DNA from: Chloroflexota bacterium
GTDB taxonomy: Bacteria > Chloroflexota > UBA11872 > UBA12225 > JAJDUF01
Assembly (NCBI GenBank): GCA_022826725.1
Contig: JAJDUF010000011.1
Location: 101,000 to 164,999 of the forward strand
Length of the DNA stretch: 64,000 bases
Direction: 5' to 3'
The translations under genes and the position numbers were made by a program. Below, piece by piece: positions 1 to 50,019 of the stretch. The first letter of the stretch is position 1, and every line of letters begins with the position of its first letter. The notes beneath the pieces are model-generated. The model searched no databases, was not told where the DNA came from, and worked only from the letters and a program-made list of their open reading frames with translations.

Positions 1-280
1 CAGCTTGGCTCGCGTGCCGCAACCGAGCCACCCGATTTTACCGGGAGCGGCGGCTGCGAGCCGGGTGGCCCATCGCCGGATGCTGTGGGAGGAGTAGGTG
101 TTGCGGCAAGGGGACGGCGATACGGCTTGACCGCCTGCTTGGTTCCGACTTAGTTTCCAACCACCAGAACCGATGAGGTCTGCGGCCGCCGATACTTCAC
201 TCTGGCCTCCTAGTACGAGCCTAAGCGCTTGGAGCACAGATTTCATCCCCACTGCAACCGCTGGCGTGAAGATTCACGCT

Positions 281-1858
281 TTATGTGTAGCTGGGTGGGC
301 CGGACTGGACAAAATCAAGAACCGGGCCCCCTTCGCTGGTCACACCGTCCACCGGCATCGGCACAGTGTACGTCAGCGTCGCCGCGTCGTCCACCACCTC
401 GATCCCCTGCACGAAGTTGCGGAGCAGCGCCTTGCGGTCCGGGAACGTCCCCCGCTGCAACAAGGCCCGGAAGTCCGCCACGTACCCCGTGATCTCCGCC
501 GTGCCGGGCAACGCCACCTTTCGCTGGGCCAACTGGTGCTCGGTGGCCTCCCGCGCCGCCGCCAGCTGATCCTGCCGGTGCCGCAGGGCCAGGATGCGCG
601 GCGACAGCGCCGCCAACGTCAACGCACTGGTCTCCAGCGCCTCGTAGAGCCGCTCCAGCCGGCTGCTGACATCGGCCAACTCCGCGTCGATGGTCTGCAA
701 TCGACCAGCCACCTCCCCGGCGACGGTGTCAATCTCCTCGGCGACCAGCGTCACCAACTCGGTGATGGTCGCATCGTTCAGAATGCGGGCCTTGATCGTG
801 TCTACGATGAAGGCCTCGACCTTGGGCGCGTTTAGGTAGCGGGCGGTGCAAGTCCCCGCCCCCTCCCGCTGCAAGGTGCCACAGACGTAGTAAGCGAACT
901 GCCCGCTCTTAGCCCCCTGGCCGACATAGGCCTTCCCACACACCCCGCAGCGCAGCAGGCCACTCAACAGGAACGTGCTGCCCACCCGGGCGGGTCGCTG
1001 CACTGCTGGCGCGCGCTCTCGCAGTGCCCGCTGCACCTCAGCGAACAACTCCTGGGACACCAGCGCCGGCCAGGCCCCCGGCACGCGCACCGGGTCCGGT
1101 GCCTGCGTACCCGTGGTGGTGCGGCCCCACACCGCGGTGCCGGTGTAGGCTTCGTTGGTCAGCAGGTAGTGCAGCGCGTTCTTCCGCCAGCGTTTCCCGC
1201 GGTTGGTGAGGCCGCGATCATTCAACGCCTTACAGATCTCCTTCAGGCCGTGGCCCCGGAGGGAGCGCTGGAAGATGTCCTTGACCACCGGCGCCGCGGC
1301 CGGGTCCACCTCCAAGGTCGGCCGCTCCTTCACGCCATCGCGGACCTTGACCCGCCGGTAGCCGAACGGCGCCCGCGACCCCAGGAAGAAGCCGCGCGCG
1401 GCGGCCTCGCGCATGCCGCGGGTGACCTCCTGGGCGAGGTTCTCGGAGTAGAACTCGTCCACGCTCTCGATGATCGCCTCCATCAGCTTGCCGGTGGGCG
1501 AGTCGTCGGCGTGCTCGGTGATCGAGACCACCTTGATCCCCCTGCGCCGGAGCATGGCCTTGAAGGCCACGGCATGCTCGCGCTTGCGAGTGAAGCGGGA
1601 GAACTTCCAGACCAGGATCACCTGGAAGGGGGCCTGGGGACGGCCACCAGCTTCGAGCAGCTTGCGGAACTCCGGCCGGTCGGCCACGCGCCCGCTCTCG
1701 GCCTCGTCCACGTATTCACGGACGACGACGTAGCCGTGCTGGGCGGCGTAATTCCGCAGCGCCCGCAGTTGGGCAGCGACGGAAAGGTCCACGTCTTGGC
1801 GGTCGCTGGACACGCGGGCGTACAGGGCTGCTGGGACCGGGTTGGGTTGGTTACGCAT
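281..1858 (-). CDS. Large serine recombinase (resolvase + recombinase + zinc-ribbon domains)
   Basis: YARVSS catalytic motif, ESG...DRPEF, SRFTR, CGVCG...YYVC zinc ribbon, coiled coil; GGAGG RBS. Confidence 0.95.
   Translation of the reverse strand: MRNQPNPVPAALYARVSSDRQDVDLSVAAQLRALRNYAAQHGYVVVREYVDEAESGRVADRPEFRKLLEAGGRPQAPFQVILVWKFSRFTRKREHAVAFKAMLRRRGIKVVSITEHADDSPTGKLMEAIIESVDEFYSENLAQEVTRGMREAAARGFFLGSRAPFGYRRVKVRDGVKERPTLEVDPAAAPVVKDIFQRSLRGHGLKEICKALNDRGLTNRGKRWRKNALHYLLTNEAYTGTAVWGRTTTGTQAPDPVRVPGAWPALVSQELFAEVQRALRERAPAVQRPARVGSTFLLSGLLRCGVCGKAYVGQGAKSGQFAYYVCGTLQREGAGTCTARYLNAPKVEAFIVDTIKARILNDATITELVTLVAEEIDTVAGEVAGRLQTIDAELADVSSRLERLYEALETSALTLAALSPRILALRHRQDQLAAAREATEHQLAQRKVALPGTAEITGYVADFRALLQRGTFPDRKALLRNFVQGIEVVDDAATLTYTVPMPVDGVTSEGGPVLDFVQSGPPSYT
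294..323. repeat. Left attachment site (core + inverted arm), inside the recombinase 3' end
   Basis: ACTGGACAAAATCAAGAACC (304-323) is the reverse complement of GGTTCTGGATTTTGTCCAGT (41525-41544) with one mismatch. Confidence 0.85.
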
Positions 1859-2075
1859 CGGGGGTACCTCCTGTGTCAGCTTGCTCGGCGGCTCGACGGG
1901 CTTGGAGGCGCTCGTAGCGGATGGTCTGACGCCACTCCCGTTCTTCCATGTACAAGCGCAGGGCTTCGCGCACGAGGTCGCTCATGGTGCGGCCTTCGGC
2001 GCGCATGACGGCCCGCACCTGGGCCGCCATGGCCGGGGGTAGCGAGAAGGTGATGGTCTTCGTGGTACGCTTCAT
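1851..2075 (-). CDS. CopG/ribbon-helix-helix regulator coupled to the recombinase
   Basis: MKRTTKTITFSLPPAMAAQV...TMSDLVREALRLY; GGAG RBS; overlaps recombinase start by 8 nt. Confidence 0.85.
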   Translation of the reverse strand: MKRTTKTITFSLPPAMAAQVRAVMRAEGRTMSDLVREALRLYMEEREWRQTIRYERLQARRAAEQADTGGTPDA

Positions 2076-2411: not shown

Positions 2412-5400
2412 TCAGCTCAAGCGCAGGTCCAAAGCCACGTCAGCAACGCGCGTGAAGACAGTCTGGACAGAGATGGTGGTTGAAGAGTCACGTTCTCGCA
2501 TTACCGGTGCCAATCTGACATTGTTCTGAGCAATTATGCGGCGTTCGACCTCGCGGAGAAGGTCTTCGTCGAGCCCAACCGCCTCCGCGAGTAGCGATAC
2601 GAGCGCGGCTGCCCGGGAATCGGGAGTCGCCGGGTTCATGACTGCGTCCCGAACCATACCGGCGGCGACGGTATCGCTTCGCAGTCGATGGGGAACACGG
2701 CGTATGAAGGGGTCGTCGTAATACGTCTCACCAGCCCCGTCCAGCCAGTCGAGAGTGCGCTCAATCCGCTCGAAGATCTCGGAACTGTCGGCCGCCGCGA
2801 AGGCATCATCGAAGGAAGTTCGGGGTCGGAAAGGATGACCTGTAGGACACCGACTGCCTGCGATCAGCGCGGAGAGGGCCTCACGAGTGGGATCGCCACT
2901 ACTCACGGGAACGCCTCGCAGTGCATCATCCAAGCGGCCTAGTAGTTCTTCCTGCTGTAGACCGATCCGCTCGAATTGTGCGACGAGGACGCTGACAAGG
3001 CGCTCGCGTTGGTCGCCGCGGTACTGCAAGAGATGAGTAACGAGGGCATCGGTGATTGCGTCGGTGCTCGGACTATCTCCCGTGAACAGTCGAGTGACAC
3101 ACCACACCAAGACACCATTCAGCCCCAATAGACCGGGGTCGGCGGCGATTGCACTCTCAAGTTCCTGTTGAAGGGTGGTGTTTCGCCCAGCGACCAAGGC
3201 CAGCGCGTTCCAGACATCGCTCTTGGGCTCCTCTGCCCGGAGTCCAGAGAGCCGCGGAAGGAGCGTATCGCCGAACTCAGACCGCAGATCTTCCCAGCAC
3301 GAGGCGAGTTGTTGCAGCAGGGTCCCGTCCGGTCCGTGGAATGGATCGGCTAGGGAGACCCCAACGGGCAACGACTCACCGATCGTCTCCACACGGCCTT
3401 CCAACATCGACCAATCGCCGCACACGCACATGCCAACCCACGCACTGCGTCTCCGGGCTTCATGGTCCGGCCCGTAACACGATGCCTGTTTACCTAAGTA
3501 AACCAGGGCTCGATCCCATTGTTCATTATCAACGTGACCCTCCTCCCGCGCCCTAAGCAAAGCTCGATGATAAGCAAGGGAAGCGATGCTCTTATTGGGC
3601 TCGGACACCTCGTCTGCCCACCGACGGGTCAAATGCACCACGGCATCAGGTGCGATGGCCCCGTCTGCCAGCGACTGACACACCCTCGCGCGCAGGTACG
3701 CGGGTAGCGACCGGAGAATAGTCGATGCGTCTTCTAGGAATCGTTCAACCTGTTCAGGATCGTGACGGAACACGGGCAAGATTGGTTCGAGAGGGCGGTC
3801 TTCAGCCTCGGCGAGTTCAGCCAGCGCCGCCTTTGAGGCCGCGGAGGGATAGAAGGCGGCGGCGAGCATATAGCGGGGGTCACCGCCAAATGGATTGGGG
3901 CCACTTGGCATGAGTCCCAGCGCCTCTGCGGCGACCGATTCGATTTCCGGTGCGGGGCCGATCTCTTGTTCCTGGCAGGCTTCGAATATGGCGGAGGCAA
4001 GGATGTCGTAGCGCCCAGAACCGGGGTTCGCAGGTCCGGCGAGGTCGCGGAGGATCGCCAGCAGGCGAGGGATTACCTCGCCAGTGGCCAAGGCACTCGT
4101 TGCGACGTTCGCGACCATTGATGCCCGTACGGGATTACCCATCAGCACCGAGTGAAGTGCATCGCGGGCATCAGCATCTTCACCGAAGTAATCGACCAGC
4201 GCATCTGCGGACCAGTGAGGCCAGGGTGAAGTGGCGAGGTCCTCTAGCAGGGCTGTCTTCATCATTGGCCCACGATCGACTGCGGCGAGTCGCCACAACT
4301 CAGGACCATCGATTCTCTTTGTGAATGTGCGAAGGCGATCTTCAATCGCCGCTGCGACACGGCCATTGCGAGGTGATTCGGGAGGATATGCCAGCGCTAG
4401 CAACTGCCCGTTACCGAGTTTCACCCTCAGGCCTAGCGAGGAGTTTTCCTCGGACCGGAGCTGGTCGCACACGATATGCACAACCCGGTCGTCGTCACCC
4501 AGCAGGTTGAGCGCGACGGGCCAAATCAAGTCAGAGTTACGGTATGGTCCCGATGCGGACTGCAAGCTCTCGACCAAGTCTTCAAGAACTGAATGTTGAC
4601 CACGTACCGCTTCCGAGACCGCAGCGACGAGCAACTCAGGGTGAGTGTTCCCGAAACCAGGGTTCCGGAGGTGCTCAATCAGCCACTCGCGTTCGACATC
4701 GCTCAACTGCTGGATGTCGCTCGGGAGTTCTGTCGGAGAGTCGCAGAGCGTAGTTCGCAGCACGCCAAGCGCGTCGCTAAGGGCCACAATCCGGACACTT
4801 TCGTCTGCGTGCCCTCGTGCGTCGTTCAGGATATCTTCGACCAAGGGATCGTGCCGCCACTCAAGGGCCAGTGCCATCAGAGCAGCGGCCTGGGCGAGAC
4901 CAGAGGGAGGGTTGGATAGAATATGCAGCAGTTCCCTACGCAGTAGGTCGCGCTCCTTGTTGTTAACGGATCGACTGTTCGAGCATCTGCCGGCGATTGC
5001 CACCGCGCTTGCATCGGCAATCCAACCGTGTGGATGGAGCAGCGCCATCAAAAGCAGCTTGCAAGCGGTCTCTGACGGAGCCCCAACCTGTGTTATTTGA
5101 GCGATCTCCCGCACGAGTGTGCTGGATGGCTCTTGGACAAGCAGTGTCCAGCGCTCCAGGCAGTCCCGCACGATGTCTTCGGTCGCCGCTCCCTCCAAAC
5201 CCGCCAGAACGCTATCCAGAAGACGTGCGCGATGCGGTCCATACGGATGGGTTTCGATCACCTCGATAATGCCAGGAGCGCTCTTCTGGATGTCTCCGGC
5301 CGGAAGGTCGTATGGTCCAAATACCACTTCCGCAAGGATTTCACGTGCGCGTAGTCCTGTTGGGGTTTCGTCAACACGCCGCCGGATCGCCCCCATCAGG

Positions 5401-7643
5401 TCGCTCAACTCCGACGGGCGGCGAAGCCTCGACATCGTGGCGAGGAGCACTTCGCGCCATCGGGGGTCTCCGATGTGCTCTGCGAACAGTTCATTCATTG
5501 CCGCGGGAGTGAGTTGGTCTGAGATGTATTCGGCAGCGAGTTGCTCCTGTAGTATTCGATGGAGAAAGCCGAGTTCTGTCGCCCCCTTTCGGACGAGGAG
5601 TCCTAGCTCACCTTCTGCTACGTTCAGTAGCTGGTCGGCAGTTTCCGCCGCATCAGCCGCATTCATGGCGAGACGGGCGGGAGCACACAGCGCGTGGAGG
5701 AAGTCTTCGCGTAGTCTTGTCTCTTCGAGAGTCGAGATGTCGCCCCTAGCCTGGCTTACGAAGGCGACATTCGCGAGGACTGCTCTTAGTTGGCGAACTG
5801 ACAATCCCCGTCGCGGCGTCGTCACAGCTGCTGCTACGCGCCTGTTCGTGGGGTGGTCAGCGACAAGAAGCTGAACCGCTTGGTCATAGACTTCGAAGCG
5901 CTCCGCCGGCAGCGTGCCTACGCTCGATAAGCGCAGTCCCACTAGGAGCACCAGGAAGAGAGGGGTCCCACTGATTGCGCGGAGACCAGGCACATTACGG
6001 ATCTGTGACAGGAAATCGTCAATCGACCGCTCGACGGTGTCAGGCGATGATGGGCGATCTTCCGAATCGATGACCGCACGAAAGTAGTGGAGTGCGAGCA
6101 GGCGCTGCTGGTCCGGGTTCAGGGGTGCGATGCGTCGGTATGTCCAGCCGGCACCCAACGTGAGTTGGGACAGCCCGTAGGGCCGAGTCGAGACTACCAG
6201 CGGTGTTGACCGCGAGTCCGCAAAGGTTTTCAAAGCGGCGACTGCATACTGCCCCGCTTCGTCGCTGACCCACTCGTCGAGGCCGTCAACGACTAGGAGC
6301 AAGCGTTGATCGTTGAGCGCCGCTTTGACAAGAGGCCAGATCTGGCCGGCATCATGTTGTTCCAGCCATGCCTTGAGCGCCTCCCCAATGGACGCAGCTG
6401 CGCCCGTTTGGCCGGCGACCCGCTGCGTAAAGAAGTGGAATGGCAACCAGATAGGGAGATACTGCCCTAATCGTTCGGCGACAGTCCGCCACCTTGGTTC
6501 CCTGCTCAGCAGGTCAAGAACCAGGTGCCTGAGGAGGGTGCTCTTGCCGGCGCCTGGATCACCAACGATCACTTGTAAGGGTTCCACACCTATCCACTGA
6601 TCGGCCGGCCGACGATCCAACACGCGGGGGTTCTCCAGGTGACGGTGCCTCCGAGCCGCGTTCGGCGGAAACGACATCCCCTCGTCCCGTGTCAGCGGGG
6701 CCCACGCAGCTGCTTCCGCCATGGCTGCAAGTAAGTCGTGTCCGTCCGTATCTAGTTCATCCAGGTCGTCTTCAGGCTGTGGTAGGGGGGCGGCCTGCGG
6801 TGTTGTGGTCACCAGATCGGGTATCACGAACCGTTCTGGCAGTGCGACCGGGTGCGTCTCACTGAACCGGAATGCAATCATCCCAGAGTCAGCGACGCCA
6901 AACGACGCCGCGTAGATTCGGGCGAGTTCACAGCGGAGCTTGGCTACCTGCCCGGCATCAAGCCGACCGCCGAGCCGCGTAGCTGCCTCGTCGCCGCAGA
7001 ACTCCTTCACCCAATGCCGACCAAAGAAGTCATCGACCAGTTCTGGGTGGTTCTTTAGCCGCCTGGAGATCTCCTCCTGATCCCAGACCACATACTCAAT
7101 GGATCGTTGCAAAAGTTGTGCAGCTAGCTTCTCGATTTCATGCACCAGCTCGGTCGATCTAGTGGAAGCGCGTGTGGCATAAACGAATTTTCGCGATACC
7201 TTGGCCCATCGTCCTTCAAGAAACCTGTCGACGCTGGCGCTCAGCTCCGCCGTCGTCACTGTTGCGATTCGACGTGCCTGGAGGCACACGTACCTCCGCT
7301 GTGGGTGCGGCTTGCCAGGGACCAGCCTATCCCTCGCGAACAGATCAATTCCGAATTGGGCCTGGCCACGCCGACCGTACAGCCTCACGACCGGTGTGGT
7401 CGGCCGACCCGTTTGGTCCGCCGTCGAAGCATGGACGGGTTCTGCGTCTAGATCGAGAAGGCGGAGACAGAGACGCTCAAAATCCTCCCATGCAAGTTCA
7501 CCAACAGGAAGTAACGCGGATCGCGTTCTTATCGGTGGGGATACGCCCCCTCCAATCGGAGGTACGCGCAGCCATGATGGCACCGGCAACCATGTGGACG
7601 GCTGATCGGGATCGGCAGGAGGCACGCTTTTCCGCTCCCGCAC
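2412..7643 (-). CDS. NACHT/STAND NTPase with N-terminal restriction-endonuclease-like domain and helical-repeat C-terminus (Avs/NLR-like defence protein)
   Basis: WEDFERLC...YGRRGQAQFGIDL...LQAR; Walker A GDPGAGKS; Walker B LLVVDGLDE; GTPLFL; FLHRILQEQLAA; long helical tail. Confidence 0.8.
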   Translation of the reverse strand: MRERKSVPPADPDQPSTWLPVPSWLRVPPIGGGVSPPIRTRSALLPVGELAWEDFERLCLRLLDLDAEPVHASTADQTGRPTTPVVRLYGRRGQAQFGIDLFARDRLVPGKPHPQRRYVCLQARRIATVTTAELSASVDRFLEGRWAKVSRKFVYATRASTRSTELVHEIEKLAAQLLQRSIEYVVWDQEEISRRLKNHPELVDDFFGRHWVKEFCGDEAATRLGGRLDAGQVAKLRCELARIYAASFGVADSGMIAFRFSETHPVALPERFVIPDLVTTTPQAAPLPQPEDDLDELDTDGHDLLAAMAEAAAWAPLTRDEGMSFPPNAARRHRHLENPRVLDRRPADQWIGVEPLQVIVGDPGAGKSTLLRHLVLDLLSREPRWRTVAERLGQYLPIWLPFHFFTQRVAGQTGAAASIGEALKAWLEQHDAGQIWPLVKAALNDQRLLLVVDGLDEWVSDEAGQYAVAALKTFADSRSTPLVVSTRPYGLSQLTLGAGWTYRRIAPLNPDQQRLLALHYFRAVIDSEDRPSSPDTVERSIDDFLSQIRNVPGLRAISGTPLFLVLLVGLRLSSVGTLPAERFEVYDQAVQLLVADHPTNRRVAAAVTTPRRGLSVRQLRAVLANVAFVSQARGDISTLEETRLREDFLHALCAPARLAMNAADAAETADQLLNVAEGELGLLVRKGATELGFLHRILQEQLAAEYISDQLTPAAMNELFAEHIGDPRWREVLLATMSRLRRPSELSDLMGAIRRRVDETPTGLRAREILAEVVFGPYDLPAGDIQKSAPGIIEVIETHPYGPHRARLLDSVLAGLEGAATEDIVRDCLERWTLLVQEPSSTLVREIAQITQVGAPSETACKLLLMALLHPHGWIADASAVAIAGRCSNSRSVNNKERDLLRRELLHILSNPPSGLAQAAALMALALEWRHDPLVEDILNDARGHADESVRIVALSDALGVLRTTLCDSPTELPSDIQQLSDVEREWLIEHLRNPGFGNTHPELLVAAVSEAVRGQHSVLEDLVESLQSASGPYRNSDLIWPVALNLLGDDDRVVHIVCDQLRSEENSSLGLRVKLGNGQLLALAYPPESPRNGRVAAAIEDRLRTFTKRIDGPELWRLAAVDRGPMMKTALLEDLATSPWPHWSADALVDYFGEDADARDALHSVLMGNPVRASMVANVATSALATGEVIPRLLAILRDLAGPANPGSGRYDILASAIFEACQEQEIGPAPEIESVAAEALGLMPSGPNPFGGDPRYMLAAAFYPSAASKAALAELAEAEDRPLEPILPVFRHDPEQVERFLEDASTILRSLPAYLRARVCQSLADGAIAPDAVVHLTRRWADEVSEPNKSIASLAYHRALLRAREEGHVDNEQWDRALVYLGKQASCYGPDHEARRRSAWVGMCVCGDWSMLEGRVETIGESLPVGVSLADPFHGPDGTLLQQLASCWEDLRSEFGDTLLPRLSGLRAEEPKSDVWNALALVAGRNTTLQQELESAIAADPGLLGLNGVLVWCVTRLFTGDSPSTDAITDALVTHLLQYRGDQRERLVSVLVAQFERIGLQQEELLGRLDDALRGVPVSSGDPTREALSALIAGSRCPTGHPFRPRTSFDDAFAAADSSEIFERIERTLDWLDGAGETYYDDPFIRRVPHRLRSDTVAAGMVRDAVMNPATPDSRAAALVSLLAEAVGLDEDLLREVERRIIAQNNVRLAPVMRERDSSTTISVQTVFTRVADVALDLRLS

Positions 7644-17880: not shown

Positions 17881-20800
17881 CTACTCGTTCTGCGACAACA
17901 CGCTCGCCGGATGCCTTATAACTTCGAACGGACTTACCGCGTCAATCTTGCAGCCCCTAAACCGCTGCGCCGCTTCCATCGCGACTGTCCGGTAGATGGG
18001 ATGGTCATCGGTCCAGAGGGGATGGCGCACGATGCTCACCCGGTTGAATCCCTTGTGCTTGTAGACCTGAAGGCAGTCAATTTCCGCCGCCTCTCCGTAT
18101 CCAAGATTTTCCAACAACACGGGAACAGGCGCATTACTGCCTCTGCAAAGTGACTGCCACGGATTGTCTTGCAGTCCCCAGGAAGAAGTAAGGTCTAGGA
18201 CAGCGTTGGGGGCTAGTGCTAACCGGGCCATCTCGGCAGACAGGCGCCAGTCCAACAGACCGTGATAGGACAGGTTGTAGAAGTCGCGCAAACACCGGTT
18301 GCACGAGGTGTCACACTCTTCACCGTGTGGTCCGCCGGCCCATATTTTGACAAGGCTCCCAGTTTTTCCGACATCACCCTCGCGCAGCAGCCTTTCGAAG
18401 TTCTCGGGTTGCCCAAGCCACCAGCAGTAACCAGCGCCATTCTGGAGCGTGTCCGATAGGAACGCCTGGCCTACCACGCGCTCGCCCCGTTCGCGGAACG
18501 GGCGGAATCCGGCATTGAACTCCAGCGTATCCACGTCCATCAGTGCGGCGGCCGAACTACGCAGGAAGAACGCAAACGAGTACCACGCCGCACGCCCAAC
18601 TGCACTCAAGGGATCGGCGAACACCCCCACGGGCCAGCTCTGAAGGCCGGTCAGCAACACGTCAGTCTTCCTGCGGGACAATAGCGCTATCTTACGCACC
18701 TCTCCCGATACAGAAACGCGACTATTTCTCCCTGGTCCAGGATCGACTGCGTAGGCTTCACTCCACTCTTGACGACCAGAGATACTAGCCCTTTGGAACT
18801 CGAATCCTCCTTGACCACCGTTGTCATTCACTGAAAGAATGTCCCCGGAGAAAGCAGATACGCCGCAGTTGCCAAGATGTTGCTCATTGGCCTCTCCGCT
18901 ATCCCAGGCAAGTGTTGGAACTGTAGAACTTGGAGTCCATTCGAATACTCCGTGATAGTCCTCTGGCGTGAAGTCGGTAAAGAACCCCTTGGGTTCTCGC
19001 GCGTCAAGAGGAGGATCAACCTGTGGGAGGTTGCAAACCTGGCAGGAATAACCCTCGGTCCCGCTCACAACGAATTGCACACTCTGGCAGTCGGGGCACA
19101 TGTGAAGAGAGGTTGGATTGGCCCCCGGAAGAGGAGGCACGAATCCAGAATCGGTACACACTCGATTTCCCCGGGGATAGAACTCCGTCACGCCACATGC
19201 GTTGTGGAGCGTCTTGTCCTTCACCGTCTGAGAACCTGGAGCAAATTGGCTGATTGCTATAGACAGGTCGCGATCTATAGTCCCATGCTCGGGAGGCCAG
19301 GGGCTGGCACGGCGGGGAACGTCAGTGTAAAGCAGACGAGAGTCCGTAGGAAACCCAAACATGGGCAGCAGACCCGCGTGCGCCAATCGCTCACTGAGGG
19401 CCTCCTGATGATAGCTTGCACCGTTCGCGATGCTGGAAATCTCATCGATGAGGGGACCCTTGGCGTATGCAATCATCTTTCTACAGAACGTGTCACCGTC
19501 GCCATTGGCCCATATGGTGCCTAGGCGCAAGGCGTCAAGGACTGCCTGGATAGTGCCTTCGTTGCGCGGAGAGTTCAACCAATCTCTGATCTCCTCGACT
19601 CGATTCGCCCAATCTGCCACCGGACCGAACTCTCCGTGGACACTGTCCCGGAATCTATCACCACCTCCTGCACCAAGCTGGACGAAGGCTAGCCGCAGTA
19701 GCTCCTTCACGAAGACGCGCTTGAGAATCGTATCGCTGGTGACGTCCACATAGGGTGCAGGCGGCGGATCACCAGTAATCTGCTCTGGCCGCTGGTAGTA
19801 GTAGTCGTCGTGGCTGCGTCCACGGCAGAATGTCACCGCCAGAGAAACACCAGCGCCGCGGCGTCCAGCCCGCCCCACCCGCTGCTGGTAGTTGAAACGC
19901 CGCGGCGGCATATTGGCCATCATCACCGCTTCCAGATCTCCGATGTCAACACCCGCCTCCATCGTGGTAGTAACGCTCAACAGGTCCACTCCGTCAACTC
20001 GTTCCGAGTTCTGCTCCTCTCCTATAAATACTTCCTGGAACCAACGCTGGCGCCTGTGTCGGTCGCCGTCGTCGGTCTGTCCAGTCAACTCTTCACAGTG
20101 CAGACGGAATCCTGGGCCGGACTCCTCGGCTAGATAAACGTAGTAGTCGAAGCTCTCGCGGGTGGTACCGGGCTCAAGTTCTACATCGGTGCAGTCCGGG
20201 CAAACAGATATCCGGCCAGTGCGATGGAGGTAGAAGGCGCTGCATCTCGGGCAACGCCACCCCTTGCACTGACCCTGCGTGTTCTTTTGGGGACCCTTTA
20301 TGATGTAAAGGTCTGTGGGTGATATTCCGAGCGTGTTTCCATCTAGAGTCCCCACGTTCGAGTTCCGCAATGTGGCTATTAATTGCTCTTTCGAAATGCT
20401 AGCGGCATCCAGAAAGCTGCGGATATTACGTGGCAAGTCAACCCCCGCTTGTGGGATCGCATCTCCACCAAAGAAATGTGCCTGGCCAGGATAGCGTCTT
20501 CTCACCCCCATCTGTCGAATTATCGATTCGACGGCGTTTACTACACCGTCGTCTGTTTCTTCAGGAGGCTTGAAGGTTGCCCACCCAGCACCAAGACTCT
20601 CCAGTGTTCTTGTCGCGTGTTGAAAAAGCGTGAACATCAACTCACTGGTTAGTGAATCATCTATCATCCCCAGCAGTCGCCGCGCTTGGGGTGGCAGTTG
20701 CGACTTCTCTTTAGGAGTACTTTCTGTCCAAGTATAGCATTCATGCCAACTGTAAGTAATTCCGTCCACCAAGTACTCGGATAGCTTGTGGGAGTTTCCT

Positions 20801-23565
20801 CCGGGATTAAACCCTAATCTTAGGAACTCTTGCTTCACTTTGTCTCTTATGACAGTGAGGGGCACACGGCCGGGATAGTCGTTCATCATGCCCAAGAGTA
20901 CATCCCGCGCAGCGGAGTCGTTGCTTGAGCCACCCAAGATCCACAGGAGTAGCTCACTGTTGAGTCGAGGGTCGAACTGTGAATCCAAGTCCCGGTCTTG
21001 TGTTCCTTTGGCCCCCGAGAGCGCCTCTCCAAGTTTCTCGTTTACCGAAAGCAACCTGTCAATCCCGCCAGCCAAATCCGTGGCAGACCTTAGCGCGGCC
21101 TCAAAGGAGTCCCAGTATTCATCCAAAGCCTTGAGCAGCAGTATCCGCACCATATCTCGGTAATGGTCCTGCTCCATACCCGAGGCAAGCTTGGCGGCGT
21201 CTTGCCTGCTATCCGTAAAAATGAGTAGCTTGCGTGCGGGCTTACCGTTCTGCTTTAAGGGCATCTCTCTGGCCAAGGCGCCTGCGACAACTTGGCAAGC
21301 CTTTTGAAACCCGGTTCGATGCGGACGCAACGGAGTATCGTATTGGCGTCTCCGGTAGTCCGCATCGCAGCGCGGGCATTTGGGAGGAAGAGCGTCCTGT
21401 TGGTCAGCGTCTTGGCCTTGTATAGAATAGACCCACCCATCTATTTGGCCAGGCCTAGATGAAGTCGAACTACGAATGAGTCGGCCGGACTTGACATTGA
21501 GTTTGGCGCGCTCCCACCTCCGGTGAATTCTGTTGTGGGAGAACTCCATGTCTTCCGGCTCTCCATTCGGTTCGTCCTTGCCCAGTGGCCAGAACACCGC
21601 GTACTGGCCGTATCTTTGGTCACCCGAGACCCAGTTAGGCATATCCTCGACGTTAGGCCGGTCCGCCGCGAGAATCTCAACCGCATGGCCAGGCAAGTCA
21701 GCTTTGCCCCGGTAGCCGCCGAGCAAGATGTCGCCACACACTTCACATACGAGCAAGTCCAGTACCCGTCCGCTGCACAAGCAGGTAATACGATGCTGGG
21801 TATGCAGAGCGCCGACGGGACCAACAGCCCCTGAAGAACCACCACCAGCCTCCAATGTCTCCCGATGCATTTTCTCATCGCAGTCCGGGTTGGCACACAC
21901 CCACATACTCTGGACATTGTGAAAAAAGAAGTGTCCACGCACCGGCTGGGGCGACGTGCCGTCTGAATCCTTACGGCTCATTCCCAGAGCCAACAGCAGG
22001 CCACGCATGGCGTCCGAGACGGCCTTGTCGGTTCCTTGTTGCCCGAAGAGCACGCTGTCCAATTTGGAAACCTTGGTTGCGCGAATTTGGCCGCTTCCGC
22101 CGGCGACTACACAAGCATCGCGGATAGCTTCATCAGCCTTGACCTTCAACAGTGCTGCTCCCAATTCGTGCGCCGATTCAACCCCTCCCTCATGCACATG
22201 TCCCAAGGACGCAGCGAGTTCTGACATCGCCCTATCCATGCCGCTATTCTCTTCGGCCGTCGGCGGCTGCATGGGTTTCGACACCTTGGGCTGGGCCTTC
22301 TGAGCGAACGCCTCGAAAGCACCTTGGAATCGGCCCATTAGCTTGTGGGAATTAGCCTTGGGAGGCTCTTGGTCCTCTGATACGATCTCGAAATTGTCCC
22401 GCCCGAAGAACTCGCGCAGGAATTTCCGGGATGCCGCAGTGTCGGTAACACTAGCCGACGTCGCCAGCAAGACCAGTTGGTCGGAATCGGCGGACAGCCC
22501 CAAACGGTCCAGTAACAAGCGCAGAATGTAGGCGACTTCGGTACCCGGCGTTCCCCGGTAGGAATGAAGCTCATCAACGATCAGGAAGAACTTGTTGGCT
22601 TGGTCGGACCTGAGCCAAGCCCTGGTCCGTTCGAACATCGCCGCTTCCACCTGCCGCATCAACATGATGTTCAGCATGTGGTAGTTGGTGATGAGAATGT
22701 CGGGCGGGGTTTCTTGCATATCCCAGCGCGACCACATCTCGCCGCCGTCGATGTTTGGGAAGTAGTAGCGCACATCGGGAGGCAGGTCGTCATCTGCCCT
22801 GACGATAGCACTCTCCTCAGCCATCTGCTTCAGCCGCTCTCTGAGTCTCCTGACAGCAGACTCATTACCTGGGACGCCGGAAACTGGGGTAACTCCGGTG
22901 TATCGCCCAAAGTTCACTCGGTTCCCGCCCCGCTCGACATCAAGCCATCGCAAAACGGTGTCAGAGTCTAAGGTTTGCCGCAGTCGCCGGAGCTGGTCTT
23001 CAACCAGCGCGTTCAGCGGGTATAGCACCATGGCCCGAACGGCGTGCAACCCTTGGGCATTCCGTTTCGTATGACCCCACTGGCTTTGCCACTCGGACAC
23101 GTCATCCTCCCACCACTTTCTGTTGGCGGGAGGAGGCGAGTTGTCAGGCCAGCCGGCGGACTCTCTAGCCAACTCGGCCAACACCGGCAGCAGGAAACAC
23201 TCGGTCTTACCGGAACCTGTACCCGTCGTGACCACCAGGTCCTTCTTGTCTCGCAGTACGGTCCTGACACTTTCCCACTGGTGCTTCCACAGCCGAACAC
23301 CCGGATTTCCCAGCAAGCCCTGCGCCAGGCTCGGCAGGTCGCGGTATTCCCGAGGAAGTTGGGTACTGGCCTCGGCTAGTGTCAGGTTTGATGAAGGGTA
23401 CACTGGCGTCGGCTCCAACAACGGCGGCTGCGACAGCGTGTCCGATGCCGCATATAGAGCCCGTCTCTCCTCGGCCATGTTGGAGTAGCGCAGAGGGAAA
23501 GCACTTTCGATGTACTTCCGATAGACTGCGGTCAAGCGTTCGTAGGCACCAACAAGATCCTGCAT
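17881..23565 (-). CDS. Large DEAD/DEAH helicase with C-terminal DUF1998 (DruE-like)
   Basis: TGTGSGKTE, YPLNAL, VDELH, TSAS, FTDSRQDAA, TTTMEAGVDIG, QRVGRAGRR, CDTSCNRCL. Confidence 0.88.
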   Translation of the reverse strand: MQDLVGAYERLTAVYRKYIESAFPLRYSNMAEERRALYAASDTLSQPPLLEPTPVYPSSNLTLAEASTQLPREYRDLPSLAQGLLGNPGVRLWKHQWESVRTVLRDKKDLVVTTGTGSGKTECFLLPVLAELARESAGWPDNSPPPANRKWWEDDVSEWQSQWGHTKRNAQGLHAVRAMVLYPLNALVEDQLRRLRQTLDSDTVLRWLDVERGGNRVNFGRYTGVTPVSGVPGNESAVRRLRERLKQMAEESAIVRADDDLPPDVRYYFPNIDGGEMWSRWDMQETPPDILITNYHMLNIMLMRQVEAAMFERTRAWLRSDQANKFFLIVDELHSYRGTPGTEVAYILRLLLDRLGLSADSDQLVLLATSASVTDTAASRKFLREFFGRDNFEIVSEDQEPPKANSHKLMGRFQGAFEAFAQKAQPKVSKPMQPPTAEENSGMDRAMSELAASLGHVHEGGVESAHELGAALLKVKADEAIRDACVVAGGSGQIRATKVSKLDSVLFGQQGTDKAVSDAMRGLLLALGMSRKDSDGTSPQPVRGHFFFHNVQSMWVCANPDCDEKMHRETLEAGGGSSGAVGPVGALHTQHRITCLCSGRVLDLLVCEVCGDILLGGYRGKADLPGHAVEILAADRPNVEDMPNWVSGDQRYGQYAVFWPLGKDEPNGEPEDMEFSHNRIHRRWERAKLNVKSGRLIRSSTSSRPGQIDGWVYSIQGQDADQQDALPPKCPRCDADYRRRQYDTPLRPHRTGFQKACQVVAGALAREMPLKQNGKPARKLLIFTDSRQDAAKLASGMEQDHYRDMVRILLLKALDEYWDSFEAALRSATDLAGGIDRLLSVNEKLGEALSGAKGTQDRDLDSQFDPRLNSELLLWILGGSSNDSAARDVLLGMMNDYPGRVPLTVIRDKVKQEFLRLGFNPGGNSHKLSEYLVDGITYSWHECYTWTESTPKEKSQLPPQARRLLGMIDDSLTSELMFTLFQHATRTLESLGAGWATFKPPEETDDGVVNAVESIIRQMGVRRRYPGQAHFFGGDAIPQAGVDLPRNIRSFLDAASISKEQLIATLRNSNVGTLDGNTLGISPTDLYIIKGPQKNTQGQCKGWRCPRCSAFYLHRTGRISVCPDCTDVELEPGTTRESFDYYVYLAEESGPGFRLHCEELTGQTDDGDRHRRQRWFQEVFIGEEQNSERVDGVDLLSVTTTMEAGVDIGDLEAVMMANMPPRRFNYQQRVGRAGRRGAGVSLAVTFCRGRSHDDYYYQRPEQITGDPPPAPYVDVTSDTILKRVFVKELLRLAFVQLGAGGGDRFRDSVHGEFGPVADWANRVEEIRDWLNSPRNEGTIQAVLDALRLGTIWANGDGDTFCRKMIAYAKGPLIDEISSIANGASYHQEALSERLAHAGLLPMFGFPTDSRLLYTDVPRRASPWPPEHGTIDRDLSIAISQFAPGSQTVKDKTLHNACGVTEFYPRGNRVCTDSGFVPPLPGANPTSLHMCPDCQSVQFVVSGTEGYSCQVCNLPQVDPPLDAREPKGFFTDFTPEDYHGVFEWTPSSTVPTLAWDSGEANEQHLGNCGVSAFSGDILSVNDNGGQGGFEFQRASISGRQEWSEAYAVDPGPGRNSRVSVSGEVRKIALLSRRKTDVLLTGLQSWPVGVFADPLSAVGRAAWYSFAFFLRSSAAALMDVDTLEFNAGFRPFRERGERVVGQAFLSDTLQNGAGYCWWLGQPENFERLLREGDVGKTGSLVKIWAGGPHGEECDTSCNRCLRDFYNLSYHGLLDWRLSAEMARLALAPNAVLDLTSSWGLQDNPWQSLCRGSNAPVPVLLENLGYGEAAEIDCLQVYKHKGFNRVSIVRHPLWTDDHPIYRTVAMEAAQRFRGCKIDAVSPFEVIRHPASVLSQNE

Positions 23566-23568
23566 GGT

Positions 23569-24888
23569 CTATTTCTCCAAGAGATCGACGTTCAGTTTAC
23601 GGCACAGTGTCCGGGCCAGGTCCAATGGTATGCGGGGATAGCTCAACCATTCGGGGTTAGCAGTCCGCCCAGGAAGTAGCCCAGAAGCCAGCGTCAACGC
23701 CCGCTCGTAAAGTAACGGCCAGCGCTGCGACGCCGGAATGAGGAGTTCTCCGGAATCCGAATCGTGGATCGCCTCCACCTTCTCTTGGTCCGCCTCCAGT
23801 GCGAGGAAGCGTAGGCCGTACCAGTCGCCACGCAACCATCGGTTGAACGGCTCGTCGAAGAACAGGGTCATGGTCCGGCTGGAACCGTCACCATCGCGGC
23901 CTAGCCGGTACATTCCCAGCTCACCGTGCCAGATGCCGTTCTGTTCGTAAAGAGTGTCGCAGGCCTGGAACCCACCTTGTCGCTGCCACCTTTTGACGTC
24001 GTAAGCCGCGATGGGCAGCTTGGGGATGGAGTGCAGCGAGTCCTTCCATCCATTCAGGTCTGGTAATAGGTGAGCCAACTGGATCGAAGTTGACCCGGCT
24101 TCGACAACCCCGAGATCGGCGCCGCCGTTAGTGTCCCGGGGAAGGCTAGACCCCAACGCAATCCGTGGCGGCCCCGGATAGTGGGTCTGGCGTTTCTCGT
24201 TCAGCGACCACCGCTCTTCGAAAACTCGAATCAGCGATTCCGTGCGCTGCCCAGTCAGGAAACCGCTTGCGGGGTCATCGGGAAACCGCACCAGGGCGGC
24301 CGGAGAAGCTGCCCACCGTGAACCATCGCTGGAACGGTCGATGTGGCCGAGGAGATTGAACCGCCGGAATACCGAGCGGGCCTCCTGCCTATCATCAGCT
24401 ACCCTAAGGATCGCGCACGCCTGTGCGAACGCTTCCCAAGTGCCCTCGCCGCGGGCCGAAACCCAGTGCAGCAATCGCTCGGAACGGGCACATACTTCGG
24501 GAGAGGCCTCCTGTGGCTGCCAGGCATCGGATTGCTCGAACGGGTCGCCGGGATCTGCATATTCCAGCCGCCTGTATTGCAGCGAGTTAAAGCCGTGTAT
24601 CCGAATGTCCTGCCGCTGCACCATACCCTTTATCTGGCCCGGCTTCAGTGGATACTCCTCGTCAAACCTGATGCCCAGGCGTTGAAGGATCCTCCCCAAG
24701 CCACCGGGAATTCGGGGACTCTCGTCATCTACTCCCAAGAATACGTAGAACTGTCCCCGGGCATTTTTCTCTAGTTTTACCAGCGGTATCCGCGCAGCCA
24801 GTTCCGCATTCACCACGGTTGTGGTGATTTTCCGGAGAACGTCTTGGGGGGACCCGACTGCTCTAGCGTAAAAGTACTTTCTCTCCAC
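23569..24888 (-). CDS. Druantia-associated hypothetical protein
   Basis: Tight operon with helicase (3-nt gap); C-terminal WPLLYERALTLASGLLP motif. Confidence 0.65.
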   Translation of the reverse strand: MERKYFYARAVGSPQDVLRKITTTVVNAELAARIPLVKLEKNARGQFYVFLGVDDESPRIPGGLGRILQRLGIRFDEEYPLKPGQIKGMVQRQDIRIHGFNSLQYRRLEYADPGDPFEQSDAWQPQEASPEVCARSERLLHWVSARGEGTWEAFAQACAILRVADDRQEARSVFRRFNLLGHIDRSSDGSRWAASPAALVRFPDDPASGFLTGQRTESLIRVFEERWSLNEKRQTHYPGPPRIALGSSLPRDTNGGADLGVVEAGSTSIQLAHLLPDLNGWKDSLHSIPKLPIAAYDVKRWQRQGGFQACDTLYEQNGIWHGELGMYRLGRDGDGSSRTMTLFFDEPFNRWLRGDWYGLRFLALEADQEKVEAIHDSDSGELLIPASQRWPLLYERALTLASGLLPGRTANPEWLSYPRIPLDLARTLCRKLNVDLLEK

Positions 24889-24890
24889 AT

Positions 24891-26618
24891 TCAGCCCCCT
24901 CCCTGGCCAGAGAAGTTACCATTATTCAGGACACTACCACGCAAGATGTAATCACCGATCGGTGTACCAAAGGTCTCTGTAGGATTGGAAGGCTCCAATG
25001 AATCCCAGGAAAGCACCCTCATGTACCGTCTGTCTACCGATCTGTCGTTTTTCAGCACTTGGACGGAATAGTCACCGGCCGCGAGATGGGATAGATCAAC
25101 CGATGTGTTCGCGGTGACCATTTCATCCAGGGCAGGTTCACTGTCCGGTTGTGAGATGTTGGTCACTCTTATCTGCCAGTTGGGATCAAAGGATGTTATT
25201 GAGAGCTCAGGCAGATGTCCCTCAAGCCAGCTATCGCGCCGCCCGGTCGTTAGCCCACCCTTCAGAGAAATGGAGGCCCTGCCGCGAGGTCGAAGCTCAT
25301 GGAACAACTCATGCATCTGTGGAATTATGCCGTCCCAGTTGGCAGACAGTACCATACACTCCCGGTACTCGAACCATTCATCATAGTCCAATGCCTCTAC
25401 TGGATCTCCATCCCAGTTCAACAGTCCTTCGTCTTTGAGGATATTCAACTGTTCCTCGCACTCCTTCCGGCACAGTAGGAGAAAGGTCTCTCCAAGCCGA
25501 GGTGCTCCCCGGCTAGCGAATGTCCCTGAGGCGCTGTCGAACCGGTCACGAACGAGCACCCAGAAGCTCCGCGCCGGTAGGTGTAGCTCTTCAATCCGTG
25601 AATCCCCGCTAATCTGGTAAGTCTTGCCGCCAGCGGGGTGGACCTGCCACAATGGCCGGAACTGGCCATCCTTCTCTTGGTGCAGGGGCTCCGGCCTACC
25701 GTCGTGTATCACAGCCAAGTCCACGCCTAGCTCTCTGGCTTGGCGTCGGGGAAATAGGTGGTAGTCTATCGTACCGAATAGAGGGTCGAATTCCCGGTAC
25801 AGGCCTGCCGTCAATCGCCTTGGGCTTCGCCAACGGGCGGAGGTACCGTCGCCGGTGCTTGGCTGGTTCCAACCTATCATTGTATAGACCCCGTAGACGG
25901 CATCAACGATGGCATCGTATCTATCCGTAGTTGCTTCCTGTGCCAGGCTTCTAATGTGACTTGTGGAGAATCCGGTAGCGCGATTGAAAAACCAGGCGCC
26001 GACCCTTTCCCGGTCGGAGTCTCTGCCCAGTCCATCCTCCGCATTTCTGAAGTCCTCCTCCAACTTCCCTTTATCTCCTTCCCTCAAGAGTGATTGGGAC
26101 AAGGGATAATTGGTAAACTTTGTCGGCCCCTCAGGGCCGCGTTCAGCCGAAGGTTGCCACTCTTTACTCAGTATCCAACTGTTGAAAGCGACCCATAGCC
26201 CCTCCTCCGGTGCGCCGGGGGGCTTCAATCCGCTAGGGCGGCCCCTTTCTCCGCCCAGGTCCAGTATTTCCCGCAGTCGCGTAAAGTAGTTTATTTCGGC
26301 AATGTCGTCTTCCGGTGCCATGCGATGCGCGGCCAACACCATTGCGCCAAGAAAAGCTACATACGGTGGAGTGTCATCTGCCTGTTCCAGAGTTGCTGTC
26401 GGCAGCACGACTCGCCCGTTGGTAACACACTCGTTTCGGACGGCCGACTCAAAGTCCCGCACGGCGCTGGACAATCTGCCCTCGGCAAAGCTGCCAGCTC
26501 CAATTTCTATCAGGGCATCGTCATCCACGCTCAGGTAAAAGACATCTCCGGGGAGCATACCCTCCGTGAAGAATTTCGCGATCGCTTCATTCCACTCGAA
26601 GTAAGAAGCCATGAACAC
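24891..26618 (-). CDS. Druantia-associated protein (DruH/DruF-like N-terminus)
   Basis: YFEWNEAIAKFF...PPYVAFL..MVLAA...NYFTRL; first gene of the three-gene operon. Confidence 0.65.
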   Translation of the reverse strand: MFMASYFEWNEAIAKFFTEGMLPGDVFYLSVDDDALIEIGAGSFAEGRLSSAVRDFESAVRNECVTNGRVVLPTATLEQADDTPPYVAFLGAMVLAAHRMAPEDDIAEINYFTRLREILDLGGERGRPSGLKPPGAPEEGLWVAFNSWILSKEWQPSAERGPEGPTKFTNYPLSQSLLREGDKGKLEEDFRNAEDGLGRDSDRERVGAWFFNRATGFSTSHIRSLAQEATTDRYDAIVDAVYGVYTMIGWNQPSTGDGTSARWRSPRRLTAGLYREFDPLFGTIDYHLFPRRQARELGVDLAVIHDGRPEPLHQEKDGQFRPLWQVHPAGGKTYQISGDSRIEELHLPARSFWVLVRDRFDSASGTFASRGAPRLGETFLLLCRKECEEQLNILKDEGLLNWDGDPVEALDYDEWFEYRECMVLSANWDGIIPQMHELFHELRPRGRASISLKGGLTTGRRDSWLEGHLPELSITSFDPNWQIRVTNISQPDSEPALDEMVTANTSVDLSHLAAGDYSVQVLKNDRSVDRRYMRVLSWDSLEPSNPTETFGTPIGDYILRGSVLNNGNFSGQGGG

Positions 26619-26996: not shown

Positions 26997-30143
<3,147 letters not shown>

Positions 30144-30224
30144 GGCATCCGTCCTGCCCTGGACATGACAAGCTCATTCCAATTGGGCAGTTGGCTCTTT
30201 CGCCGTGGCCCTATGTAGTCGTTG

Positions 30225-30605
30225 TCACGGTGCCGCTGAACGCTCTTCAATGATGACTTCGCCGTCGGCCCATGCTTCCAGCGTTACGCTACTGTCCCAG
30301 AGCAGGTCCATGCCCAGCAGCGGGACACTATCCGATTGCAGCACCAGCGCGTCAGCCAAGCGTCCGTGCCAGGATACCGTAGCGAGGTAGGTAGTGAATT
30401 CGAACGGCTCCCCACTGGCCAGCTCGAAGACTCGATAGCCGGCCGAGGGAAGGCCCAACCGCCGAATGGCATCCGGGGGTAGTGTCAAGTAGCCGGTGAA
30501 TCCAGTGTCTAGGACGACCTCCAATCCTTGGAGGCTGTCTGCGCTGTCCATAATATCTATGGTAATCAAAGCCTGCTGGTACTGGTTTACTTTCCCTCTG
30601 ATCAT
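30225..30605 (-). CDS. Clan AA (retropepsin-like) aspartic protease
   Basis: VLDTGFTG catalytic motif; PLLGMDLL. Confidence 0.85.
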   Translation of the reverse strand: MIRGKVNQYQQALITIDIMDSADSLQGLEVVLDTGFTGYLTLPPDAIRRLGLPSAGYRVFELASGEPFEFTTYLATVSWHGRLADALVLQSDSVPLLGMDLLWDSSVTLEAWADGEVIIEERSAAP

Positions 30606-30871
30606 GGCGTGAACGTCAAGCTCCCGCCGCCCATACTGTAGGCAGCGCGATATCCAACCCGCAGTCCATAGATGACGGCTTCCGACTGCCGCTGCTGCAA
30701 CCGCAGCGTAGCCGTTGCATCGTTGGCATCCAGTTCGTAGTCACCGGTCTCGATGTCAATGACCACGAACTTGCCGTGCTCCTGCGGCTCCACCAAGTGG
30801 CGGATCTTTTCCCGATAGATGGCCTCGCCACGGGCGCTCACCTCTCCGGGGCGGTAGGTCCGGTTCGCCAT
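30602..30871 (-). CDS. Small DUF5678-like partner of the aspartic protease
   Basis: MANRTY...GKFVVIDIETGDYE; GGAGG RBS; ATGA overlap with protease. Confidence 0.7.
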   Translation of the reverse strand: MANRTYRPGEVSARGEAIYREKIRHLVEPQEHGKFVVIDIETGDYELDANDATATLRLQQRQSEAVIYGLRVGYRAAYSMGGGSLTFTP

Positions 30872-30954
30872 AGTAGCCTCCCGTTGACAGTCGCCGATGG
30901 CGCCGCGTGTAACGGCTCCATACCAGTATACCGGGGGTTCGTTAGCGGGTGGGT

Positions 30955-31069
30955 CGCTCGGCGCCGGGGGTATCGGGTGCCATATCCGCCCGTGTGCTAC
31001 CTGCCAGCCGAGGCCGGTCAGCCAGGCGAGGTCAGCGTGCTCGACATCGGCTTCAGCGATGGTGGTCAT
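30955..31069 (-). pseudogene. hsdR: Decayed duplicate of the hsdR 5' end (copy 2)
   Basis: 31038-31069 matches hsdR 30112-30143 at 31/32; [23 protein letters not shown], then frameshift. Confidence 0.85.
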
Positions 31070-31578: not shown

Positions 31579-31581
31579 AGC

Positions 31582-31974: not shown

Positions 31975-32027
31975 TGCCTCCTAGTCTATTGGCAAACGTC
32001 ATCCAGTACCGCTGCGGGCCGGCTGCG

Positions 32028-32185: not shown

Positions 32186-32214
32186 CAACTATCGTCCATC
32201 TACCATACCTTGTG

Positions 32215-33813: not shown

Positions 33814-33850
33814 ATACGTCTACCCCCGCGGGCGAACTGGAGAGGAACTG

Positions 33851-35822: not shown

Positions 35823-35892
35823 GTTCTTCCTCGCTACCCGCGGACGTTCTCCGCAATCACCGGGACCATGGCGAATGCTCCTCTCCCGTCAG

Positions 35893-42333: not shown

Positions 42334-42336
42334 TTC

Positions 42337-50005: not shown

Positions 50006-50019
50006 GGACGGCGGGGGCA

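Follow-up and report, generated by a model that had tools for sequence, protein, structure and literature searches.

A serine integrase gene that holds its own attP, and a conserved C-terminal tail detached from it in the integrated state of a Chloroflexota island

What becomes of a recombinase gene when the site at which its product joins DNA lies inside the gene's own 3′ end? The question is raised by a 64,000-nucleotide (nt) stretch of a Chloroflexota genome (contig JAJDUF010000011.1, positions 101,000 to 164,999), in which a large serine recombinase gene stands at the left end of an integrated element of about 41 kb. This whole stretch is called the window below, and its genome is G000. 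Comparison of the junctions with related genomes indicates that joining the two ends of the element restores an attP within the gene and carries the reading frame into a 16-residue tail that is conserved among related elements. Two isoforms of the enzyme, set by the excised versus the integrated state, are thereby well supported at the level of sequence.

The attachment site within the recombinase gene

The following features make up the element and its two junctions.

281–1858, minus strand: large serine recombinase gene, integrated (short) isoform, 525 residues (open reading frame and Pfam).
272–291, minus strand: host-derived half-site B′, giving the last codons AGC TAC ACA TAA (SYT and stop); the same sequence lies directly after tRNA-Ala in a sister species, G002.
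292–303, minus strand: 12-nt spacer of the recombinase-side junction, CCGGCCCACCCA, with the CCACC core at 298→294 and the putative crossover CC at 298–297.
304–322, minus strand: attP-type left arm (P), 19 nt, GTTCTTGATTTTGTCCAGT, encoding VLDFVQ within the recombinase end (arm search).
299–41549, no strand: integrated element, ~41.25 kb (arms, junctions and empty site).
41495–41545, minus strand: tail-coding segment, 16 codons NWTKSRTFTLRFILVL plus TAA, detached from the gene and in frame only after the ends are joined.
41526–41544, plus strand: attP-type right arm (P′), GTTCTGGATTTTGTCCAGT, whose minus strand encodes (N)WTKSR(T) (arm search).
41545–41556, minus strand: 12-nt spacer of the tRNA-side junction, CAGGTCCACCTA, with the CCACC core at 41551→41547.
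41547–41621, minus strand: tRNA-Ala(CGC), whose 3′ end ...GGTCCACC is the core (ARAGORN; an identical tRNA is present in the empty site of G002).

Judged by its domain order, the 525-residue protein is a large serine recombinase (serine integrase). Specifically, an N-terminal Resolvase domain (residues 10–156; Pfam 3.4e-33) is followed by a Recombinase domain (1.9e-24) and then by a zinc ribbon (Zn_ribbon_recom, 1.3e-15), and the protein contains the motif YARVSSDRQ, the serine of which we take to be the catalytic nucleophile. The C-terminus reads ...VLDFVQSGPPSYT, and the stop codon lies three codons beyond the CCACC core.

The two arms are inverted relative to each other, differ at one of 19 positions and lie 41.2 kb apart. 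They are the only arm matches in the window at up to three mismatches, with 0 expected from 100 shuffles. When the ends are joined, they form an attP of ~50 bp, with inverted 19-nt arms on either side of a 12-nt spacer (19 + 12 + 19) and a short core, CCACC, in common with attB. We infer that the crossover dinucleotide is the first CC of CCACC, at the centre of this dyad; the crossover falls inside the integrase open reading frame (ORF), upstream of the stop codon of the circular form. Because the spacer is 12 nt long, the recombinase frame is preserved across the joined ends.

The left flank of the element (295 nt) was searched in 41 genomes, G000 included, and apart from G000 it was matched in two genomes of the same genus, G001 and G002. 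G002 contains an empty attB, in which the identical tRNA-Ala (locus L003, 1428–1502) ends in ...GGTCCACC and continues with TAGCTACACATAAAG..., the flank being 92% identical. The uninterrupted site of G002 therefore shows that the join is real and fixes the boundaries of the element. In G001 the site is filled by a related element, whose recombinase is 86% identical and has the same host-encoded SYT ending, with a different spacer. The base 3′ of CCACC is C at the left junction of the window and in G001 and T in the empty site of G002, a difference consistent with crossover at the central CC plus a single-nucleotide polymorphism in the flank. ARAGORN finds tRNA-Ala(CGC) as the single tRNA of the window, and the element's own DNA restores the final bases (CC ACC) of this gene.

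An earlier note on this DNA, made from the letters alone, had claimed that the integrated gene ends VLDFVQSGPP-SYT with its last codons supplied by flanking DNA, that joining the element ends at CCACC rebuilds a symmetric attP, and that the frame then stays open into the right end. The ORF and the empty site of G002 bear out the first claim, the 19 + 12 + 19 arms and the same empty site the second, and the joined frame reads NWTKSRTFTLRFILVL and then TAA, exactly as the note gave it.

Duplications of the target were also observed. The tRNA-Ala(CGC) region is duplicated at L028/L030 (G001) and L029/L031 (G004), with the copies a few kb apart; in both genomes one copy adjoins the right end of an element, and in G004 that copy is degenerate. 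These duplicated regions are consistent with repeated insertion and decay at the site.

Relatives of the recombinase (E ≤ 1e-30) occur in 12 of the 41 genomes, G000 included, and in seven of the eight other genomes of the genus, with up to 10 matches in G001. In the nine genomes of the genus the arm count is 4–14 per genome, against 0–1 in a reversed control. G000 has nine arm matches and a single recombinase gene, and most arms are therefore remnants.

The integrated copies have altered C-termini. Close paralogues (86–94% identical) at other sites keep ...VLDFVQSG(PP), and divergence starts at the core. The ending is SYT in the window and LSLRDRST in L008; L021 and L023 end in antisense tRNA sequence, and L006, L007 and L017 in the antisense of a second, converging recombinase gene. 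The bodies of these recombinases have ratios of nonsynonymous to synonymous differences (pN/pS) of 0.09–0.25 at a pS of ~0.35, by which they are under purifying selection. Antisense-tRNA endings were also found in relatives 55–60% identical (genome search) and in many of 76 full-length representatives at 30–55% identity; tRNA 3′ ends thus appear to be the target throughout the clade, with attP lying within the end of the gene.

The detachable tail

Conservation beyond the right arm was assessed with all unique arm hits at up to four mismatches from G000 and the collected loci (n = 63). These comprise 34 right ends with a recognisable tail, picked by a pattern on tail residues 2–12, 15 left arms in recombinase genes, and 14 degenerate or chance hits. 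In 26 of these 34, exactly 16 codons precede the first stop, and the stop position is occupied by TAG (20), TAA (5) or TGA (2). Leu14 is kept in 32 of the 34 by five different codons, residue 16 is mostly hydrophobic, and the per-site entropy climbs to ~1.9 bits straight after codon 17, the stop. Leu10 is written as TTG (15), CTG (11), CTC (3), TTA (1) or CTA (1), and Arg11 as CGG (14), AGG (14), CGT (1) or CGC (1), while residues 9, 13 and 15 are variable at all three codon positions. The codon pattern leads us to regard the tail as a peptide that is, or until recently was, translated and under selection.

Natural genes of the long form were sought by scanning public collections for the arm-12-arm arrangement with a 20-letter pattern. 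The scan returned 17 loci, 4 from metagenomes and 13 from genomes, and none from viral contigs. Full 19-nt arms are present in 7 of the 17 loci, all in Dehalococcoidia genomes. The other ten (L065–L072, L077 and L080) have the short pattern only, have no recombinase, and were judged to be chance palindromes or unrelated repeats. In L073, L078 and L079 the recombinase ORF passes through an intact arm-12-arm site into the tail, with the read-through ORF of L079 ending ...DWTKSRTFVLRLRLML, and L081, which has full arms, is a short remnant. The remaining Dehalococcoidia loci, L074–L076, have the order tail-arm-core-arm-tail and no recombinase; their two tails differ in DNA and encode the same peptide, possibly as a result of recombination between two right ends.

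A protein database search with the C-terminal 88 residues of L079 retrieved 612 proteins (E ≤ 1e-5), and 17 of the top-ranking 120 carry the tail; they end ...SGPP(N/D)(W/L)TK(S/T)RTF.(L/I)RF.L.., the full-length ones being 538–540 residues long, and P0002 and P0003 end ...NWTKTRTFVIRFTLAV. The joined form of the window recombinase would be 538 residues long. In the other 103, the frame mostly continues into a tRNA or a convergent recombinase gene. Insertion of a new copy beside an old right end would be expected to give long forms on large chromosomal contigs. The tail conservation and these natural long forms support a further claim of the earlier note, that the excised and integrated states encode different C-termini; the motif RTFxLxF, which the note had singled out, is conserved among the reconstructed tails, with the codon pattern indicating selection at the peptide level.

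In L006, L007 and L017 (G001 and G005), as in most of the 120 relatives, two serine recombinase genes converge on one core, and each reads into the antisense of the other. In L006 and L007 the converging recombinases are 53–58% identical by genome search. Such pairs look like stacked insertions at one site.

The tail is also found behind a second kind of sequence. Remnants ending ...VVLCTVPLGLP are joined in frame to an NWTKSRTF... tail in G000 (contig C3, near 26081), L035, L053, L057 and L058, and this ending resembles the C-terminus of a sister recombinase family (55–60% identical), which may use the same far-side fragment. No intact recombinase gene lies upstream of the remnants in G000 C3, L035 and L053. 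A 193-residue ORF reading into the tail on contig C17 proved to be the antisense of a GNAT-like gene and was rejected as a second recombinase type.

Structure models and readings of the tail

To model the long form, we used P0002 as a stand-in for the window enzyme, to which it is 73% identical with no gaps, and an alignment of 79 sequences. The AlphaFold2 model has a mean predicted local distance difference test score (pLDDT) of 86 and a predicted template modelling score of 0.71. The canonical fold closes with a β-hairpin at residues 484–499; residues 502–528, which include all attP-encoded sequence, have a pLDDT below 50; and the last block has a mean pLDDT of 75 and forms a strand at residues 530–536 (TFVIRFT). 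In the model, then, the att-encoded stretch is a disordered linker, and the tail takes the form of a β-strand. Of the two roles that the earlier note had proposed for the hydrophobic tail, the strand prediction leans towards "extra strand" rather than "degron", without settling the matter.

The model was compared with solved serine integrases, which Foldseek matches at E-values of 2e-18 to 3e-11. VIA-align 2 gives Z 13–18 for full chains (18.5 for 9dxh, 15.8 for 9iu2 and 18.4 for 4kis), and the root-mean-square deviation from these three is 10–11 Å over 300–458 residues, a high value because the domains are hinged. The chains 9dxh, 9y66, Bxb1 9iu2, phiC31 9rah and LI 4kis align only to about residue 503; two rows for Bxb1 sub-regions align as far as 530–531. 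Docking of residues 505–539 on residues 1–503 scores 0.40, versus 0.00 for the best of three controls, with contacts agreeing between runs by at least 57% and a partner pLDDT of at least 44. Of 80 solved complexes, 58 pass the mark set for docking, as do 2 of 110 mismatched pairs; scores of 0.60 or less occur in only 7 of the 80 solved complexes and in both passing mismatches. The docking model thus gives weak support to a tail that packs on the enzyme body.

These data suggest the following mechanism. The island would be moved by a large serine recombinase that has its 50-bp attP inside the 3′ end of its own gene. On the free circle, the gene would read through attP as a disordered linker (...VLDFVQSGPP, then NWTKSR), and a conserved C-terminal strand (TFxLRFxLx-hydrophobic, stop) would complete a 538-residue enzyme, the form present when the element must integrate. 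Integration at the 3′ tip of tRNA-Ala would shift the strand-coding DNA 41 kb away, and the resident gene would then make a tail-less 525-residue enzyme ending in three host-encoded residues. This layout, with a complete enzyme on the circle or wherever a right end follows the gene and with the strand lost on integration, follows from the anatomy and the selection signal. The strand may dock on the enzyme body and be required for activity or tune it; its loss would change the enzyme, most likely to a weaker or redirected one, and would stabilise the inserted state. Full length would be regained in the circle, or where a second copy adjoins. That integration acts as a functional switch in this way, through a structural strand, we regard as somewhat probable. 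These genomes contain many orphan right ends and broken recombinase genes, as would fit an enzyme impaired after integration, though this is no proof.

Several observations weigh against this account. Given the pattern by which the 34 right ends were picked, codons 13–17 and the fall-off behind them are the only choice-free part of the conservation. The pN/pS of 0.49 in the tail frame is the lowest among the six frames, and it is modest, barely under the 0.53 of the in-register antisense frame. That antisense frame shares some synonymies, and stops arise in it wherever Leu is TTA or CTA; it is because of these codons that the tail frame can be told apart from it. Among the read-through genes, L079 is interrupted close to the catalytic serine by an in-frame stop (YARVSSDR*), only part of L073 is present, and L078 is without the conserved stop. 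No intact attP was found in G000 or in any of the nine genomes of the genus. Likewise, no excised circle junction was found among the Logan contigs of four runs, contigs being prone to lose rare forms. The Logan contigs of X1 (the best source, labelled a sponge metagenome) and of X2–X4 break at the arm, with a depth of 15 in the flank and ~250 over 301–350; none of their loose ends matched the opposite end of the element, a result that is uninformative on absence, and no RNA data set is listed among the sources of this sequence. In addition, the last 100 residues folded alone have a mean pLDDT of 57 and an unstructured tail with no strand, and the docking score is a weak one that gives no interface.

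The tail could instead be a degradation tag. The long form made on the circle would then be short-lived, confining integrase to a brief window after entry, and integration would remove the tag and stabilise the resident enzyme, by the logic of mycobacteriophage integration-dependent immunity. The tails do end in hydrophobic residues (LVL, LAL, LTV, LAV), they follow a linker that is disordered in the AlphaFold2 model and are unstructured in the isolated C-terminal fragment, and C-terminal ssrA-like tags on an integrase and on an attP-holding repressor are described in the Hatfull review (PMC9262239). However, the conserved residues alternate (F.L.F.L) like those of an amphipathic strand, there is no fixed terminal motif of the -LAA type, and the last two positions of the tail are its most variable. 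The strand at a pLDDT of ~75 in the full-length model and, weakly, the difference in docking score from the controls also speak against a tag, which we consider quite improbable. We give equally little credence to an overlap without regulatory meaning, in which attP simply lies at the end of a compact module and the short form is as good as the long one. Such an overlap would agree with the solved large serine integrases, in which the canonical fold is complete where the alignment stops near residue 503, and with the host-encoded endings, which are arbitrary (3 to >40 residues) on genes that are nonetheless intact and under purifying selection; a similar "trivial explanation" is listed for DsiB by McMurdie et al. 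in the text available to us (PMC3146451). It does not account for tail residues, length and stop that are kept although synonymous sites differ by ~35–60%.

Conservation past the right arm might also act at the level of DNA or RNA, as an extended binding site for the recombinase or for the ribbon-helix-helix protein described below, or as a hairpin or terminator for converging cargo. The plus strand has such a hairpin, terminator-like in form, at 41510–41529: GAACC(T)...(A)GGTTC with TGGATTTTGT behind it (1 found versus 0.4 expected). Its stem consists of the end of the arm and the Arg-Phe codons. Yet the conserved Leu10 and Phe8 fall in its loop, the Leu codons vary at first and third positions while the residue is constant, and three stop codons occupy one position. 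Furthermore, GGTTC changes without a compensating change in GAACC, in L079, L047 and L055 for example, and the left arm has no matching extension; this explanation seems to us very improbable. The hairpin sits downstream of the plus-strand SIR2/Piwi genes of the cargo, opposite the tail-coding DNA and the arm.

In a stronger version of the switch, the strand itself would set direction: while it is attached, the enzyme would carry out attP × attB recombination only, and its removal by integration would leave an excision-competent or excision-poised form. The DNA product would thereby rewrite its own catalyst, with no need of a classical directionality factor. Because the relatives at 30–55% identity also have antisense-tRNA endings, this could apply to a whole clade of tRNA-targeting serine integrases, and integrases mined from integrated copies for genome engineering would then be the "wrong" isoform. 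We think this version unlikely. A further gene overlaps the start of the recombinase gene by 8 nt:

1851–2075, minus strand: ribbon-helix-helix (RHH, CopG-type) gene, 74 residues (Pfam RHH_1, 1.8e-07).

An RHH-type ORF lies upstream of the recombinase in several relatives, near-identical in L006, L008, L023, L009 and L018, more divergent in L010 and L073, and frame-broken in L007; none was found at L011, L013, L017 and L079. By its position and conservation, the RHH protein is a candidate regulator or directionality factor. The statement in the earlier note that no separate directionality factor is evident is unsafe, being weakened because a conserved RHH gene overlaps the recombinase start.

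Cargo, surroundings and comparison with known systems

Pfam was run on 27 chosen ORFs of the element (≥74 residues) and on three ORFs to the right of the tRNA. The matches include a NACHT STAND NTPase of 1743 residues (2412–7643), a complete type I restriction-modification set (26997–37551), a ThsB-like TIR protein adjoining an 8xMP membrane protein (31066–31974), and a SIR2 protein followed by a weak Piwi match (37973–41145). A DnaG-type primase, a Rad52-like protein, RadC and helicases are also encoded. The specificity subunit of the restriction-modification set (33851–35617) has a nucleotidyltransferase domain, and at 17881–26618 a helicase of 1894 residues stands with two neighbours that have no assignment. 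The cargo at 2412–41145 is nearly all of defence type, and on these domain assignments the element is a defence island on an integrative backbone. At 29936–32171, diverged direct repeats (175 nt at 70% and 85 nt at 87%) cross the starts of hsdR and of small neighbouring ORFs, which suggests paralogous small genes between hsdR and a TPR/FRG protein.

Past the tRNA, outside the element, a RiboL-PSP HEPN protein and a GmrSD-type restriction enzyme are encoded at 41770–43512; the tRNA site therefore has defence genes on the host side too. Further to the right, the host DNA at 50010–60658 contains four copies of a GC-rich palindromic repeat, CCCCGGCCCCTCTCC...GGAGAGGGG, and a tandem array of three 72-nt units at 50467–50685. 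Elements of this type in uncultured Chloroflexota thus bear large defence-gene cargoes and form stacks at tRNA sites.

The window enzyme shares domain order and fold with the integrases of Bxb1, phiC31 and Listeria LI/A118, which likewise use an attP of ~50 bp with inverted arms and a short common core. In the available literature on these three, direction comes from a separate factor that binds the zinc-ribbon/coiled-coil region, and an attP inside the integrase gene is not mentioned. The available part of the main text of Durrant et al. 2022 contains neither the word "tRNA" nor a remark on attP within coding sequence. A 2014 paper, in the part available, states that serine integrases are not known to target tRNA genes (PMC4383910), and our literature search returned no later statement either way. 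The elements described here add tRNA genes to the targets of serine integrases. They also bear on the directional control of these enzymes, for which recent structural papers, as far as their accessible text goes, invoke separate factors. In practical terms, pipelines that gather serine integrases from integrated elements accept the chromosomal ORF unchanged; in this clade such an ORF finishes in arbitrary host sequence, and only the joined ends reveal the integrating enzyme.

Attachment sites inside coding sequence have precedents among tyrosine recombinases. Mx8 IntP belongs to these and differs from the window enzyme, a serine recombinase, in chemistry and site structure; the C-terminal stretch replaced in Mx8 is much longer. 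In the accessible account of Mx8 IntP/IntX, attP lies within the int coding sequence, integration gives a new 3′ end, and the prophage-form integrase is reported to be still active with changed properties (PMC6070905). The SSV-type archaeal ("suicidal") integrases, as described in the portion of the source at hand, also have the site inside the integrase ORF, and integration disrupts the gene (PMC7253208 and the Islander paper). Here too the enzymes are tyrosine recombinases, and integration inactivates their gene by dividing it into two large pieces, whereas the window element exchanges the last 16 codons only. In the immunity systems of mycobacteriophage BPs and its relatives, again from a partial text, attP likewise sits within a gene, at a tRNA site, a C-terminal peptide is lost on integration, which alters how the protein behaves, and no separate directionality factor is evident (PMC9262239). 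Those systems differ from the window in that a tyrosine integrase is at work, the gene altered by integration encodes the repressor, and the lost peptide is a degradation tag resembling ssrA; the tail of the window enzyme has a hydrophobic end and not -LAA.

The closest system is DsiB, a 540-residue serine recombinase of Dehalococcoides ssrA islands. Apart from it, no serine integrase reported to have attP within its own gene came up in our searches of the literature. In the text available, dsiB always overlaps attL at its 3′ terminus, with the stop codon outside the island and divergent endings, and McMurdie et al. (2011) suggest that DsiB may reach full function only when the island is circular or lies next to another that carries the "requisite 3′ gene fragment" (PMC3146451). 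The window enzyme resembles DsiB in being a serine recombinase of ~540 residues from the same bacterial class, and tandem islands occur in both. It differs in its target, tRNA-Ala(CGC) instead of the tmRNA gene ssrA, and in its company: an RHH gene precedes it, whereas DsiB is accompanied by the small, co-transcribed serine recombinase DsiA, and no second Resolvase-domain ORF of the DsiA kind is among the 27 element ORFs scanned with Pfam. The design and the idea are thus already in print, for a serine recombinase in DsiB and with a tyrosine precedent in Mx8 IntP, and are not new. The evidence for selection on the tail appears to be new: a conserved 3′ fragment is not found in the available text of the DsiB paper (PMC3146451), whereas here the tail is conserved and selected. 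The suggestion of 2011 thereby becomes testable on a defined object, a tail of 16 residues encoded beyond attP, ~10 of which are under peptide-level selection.

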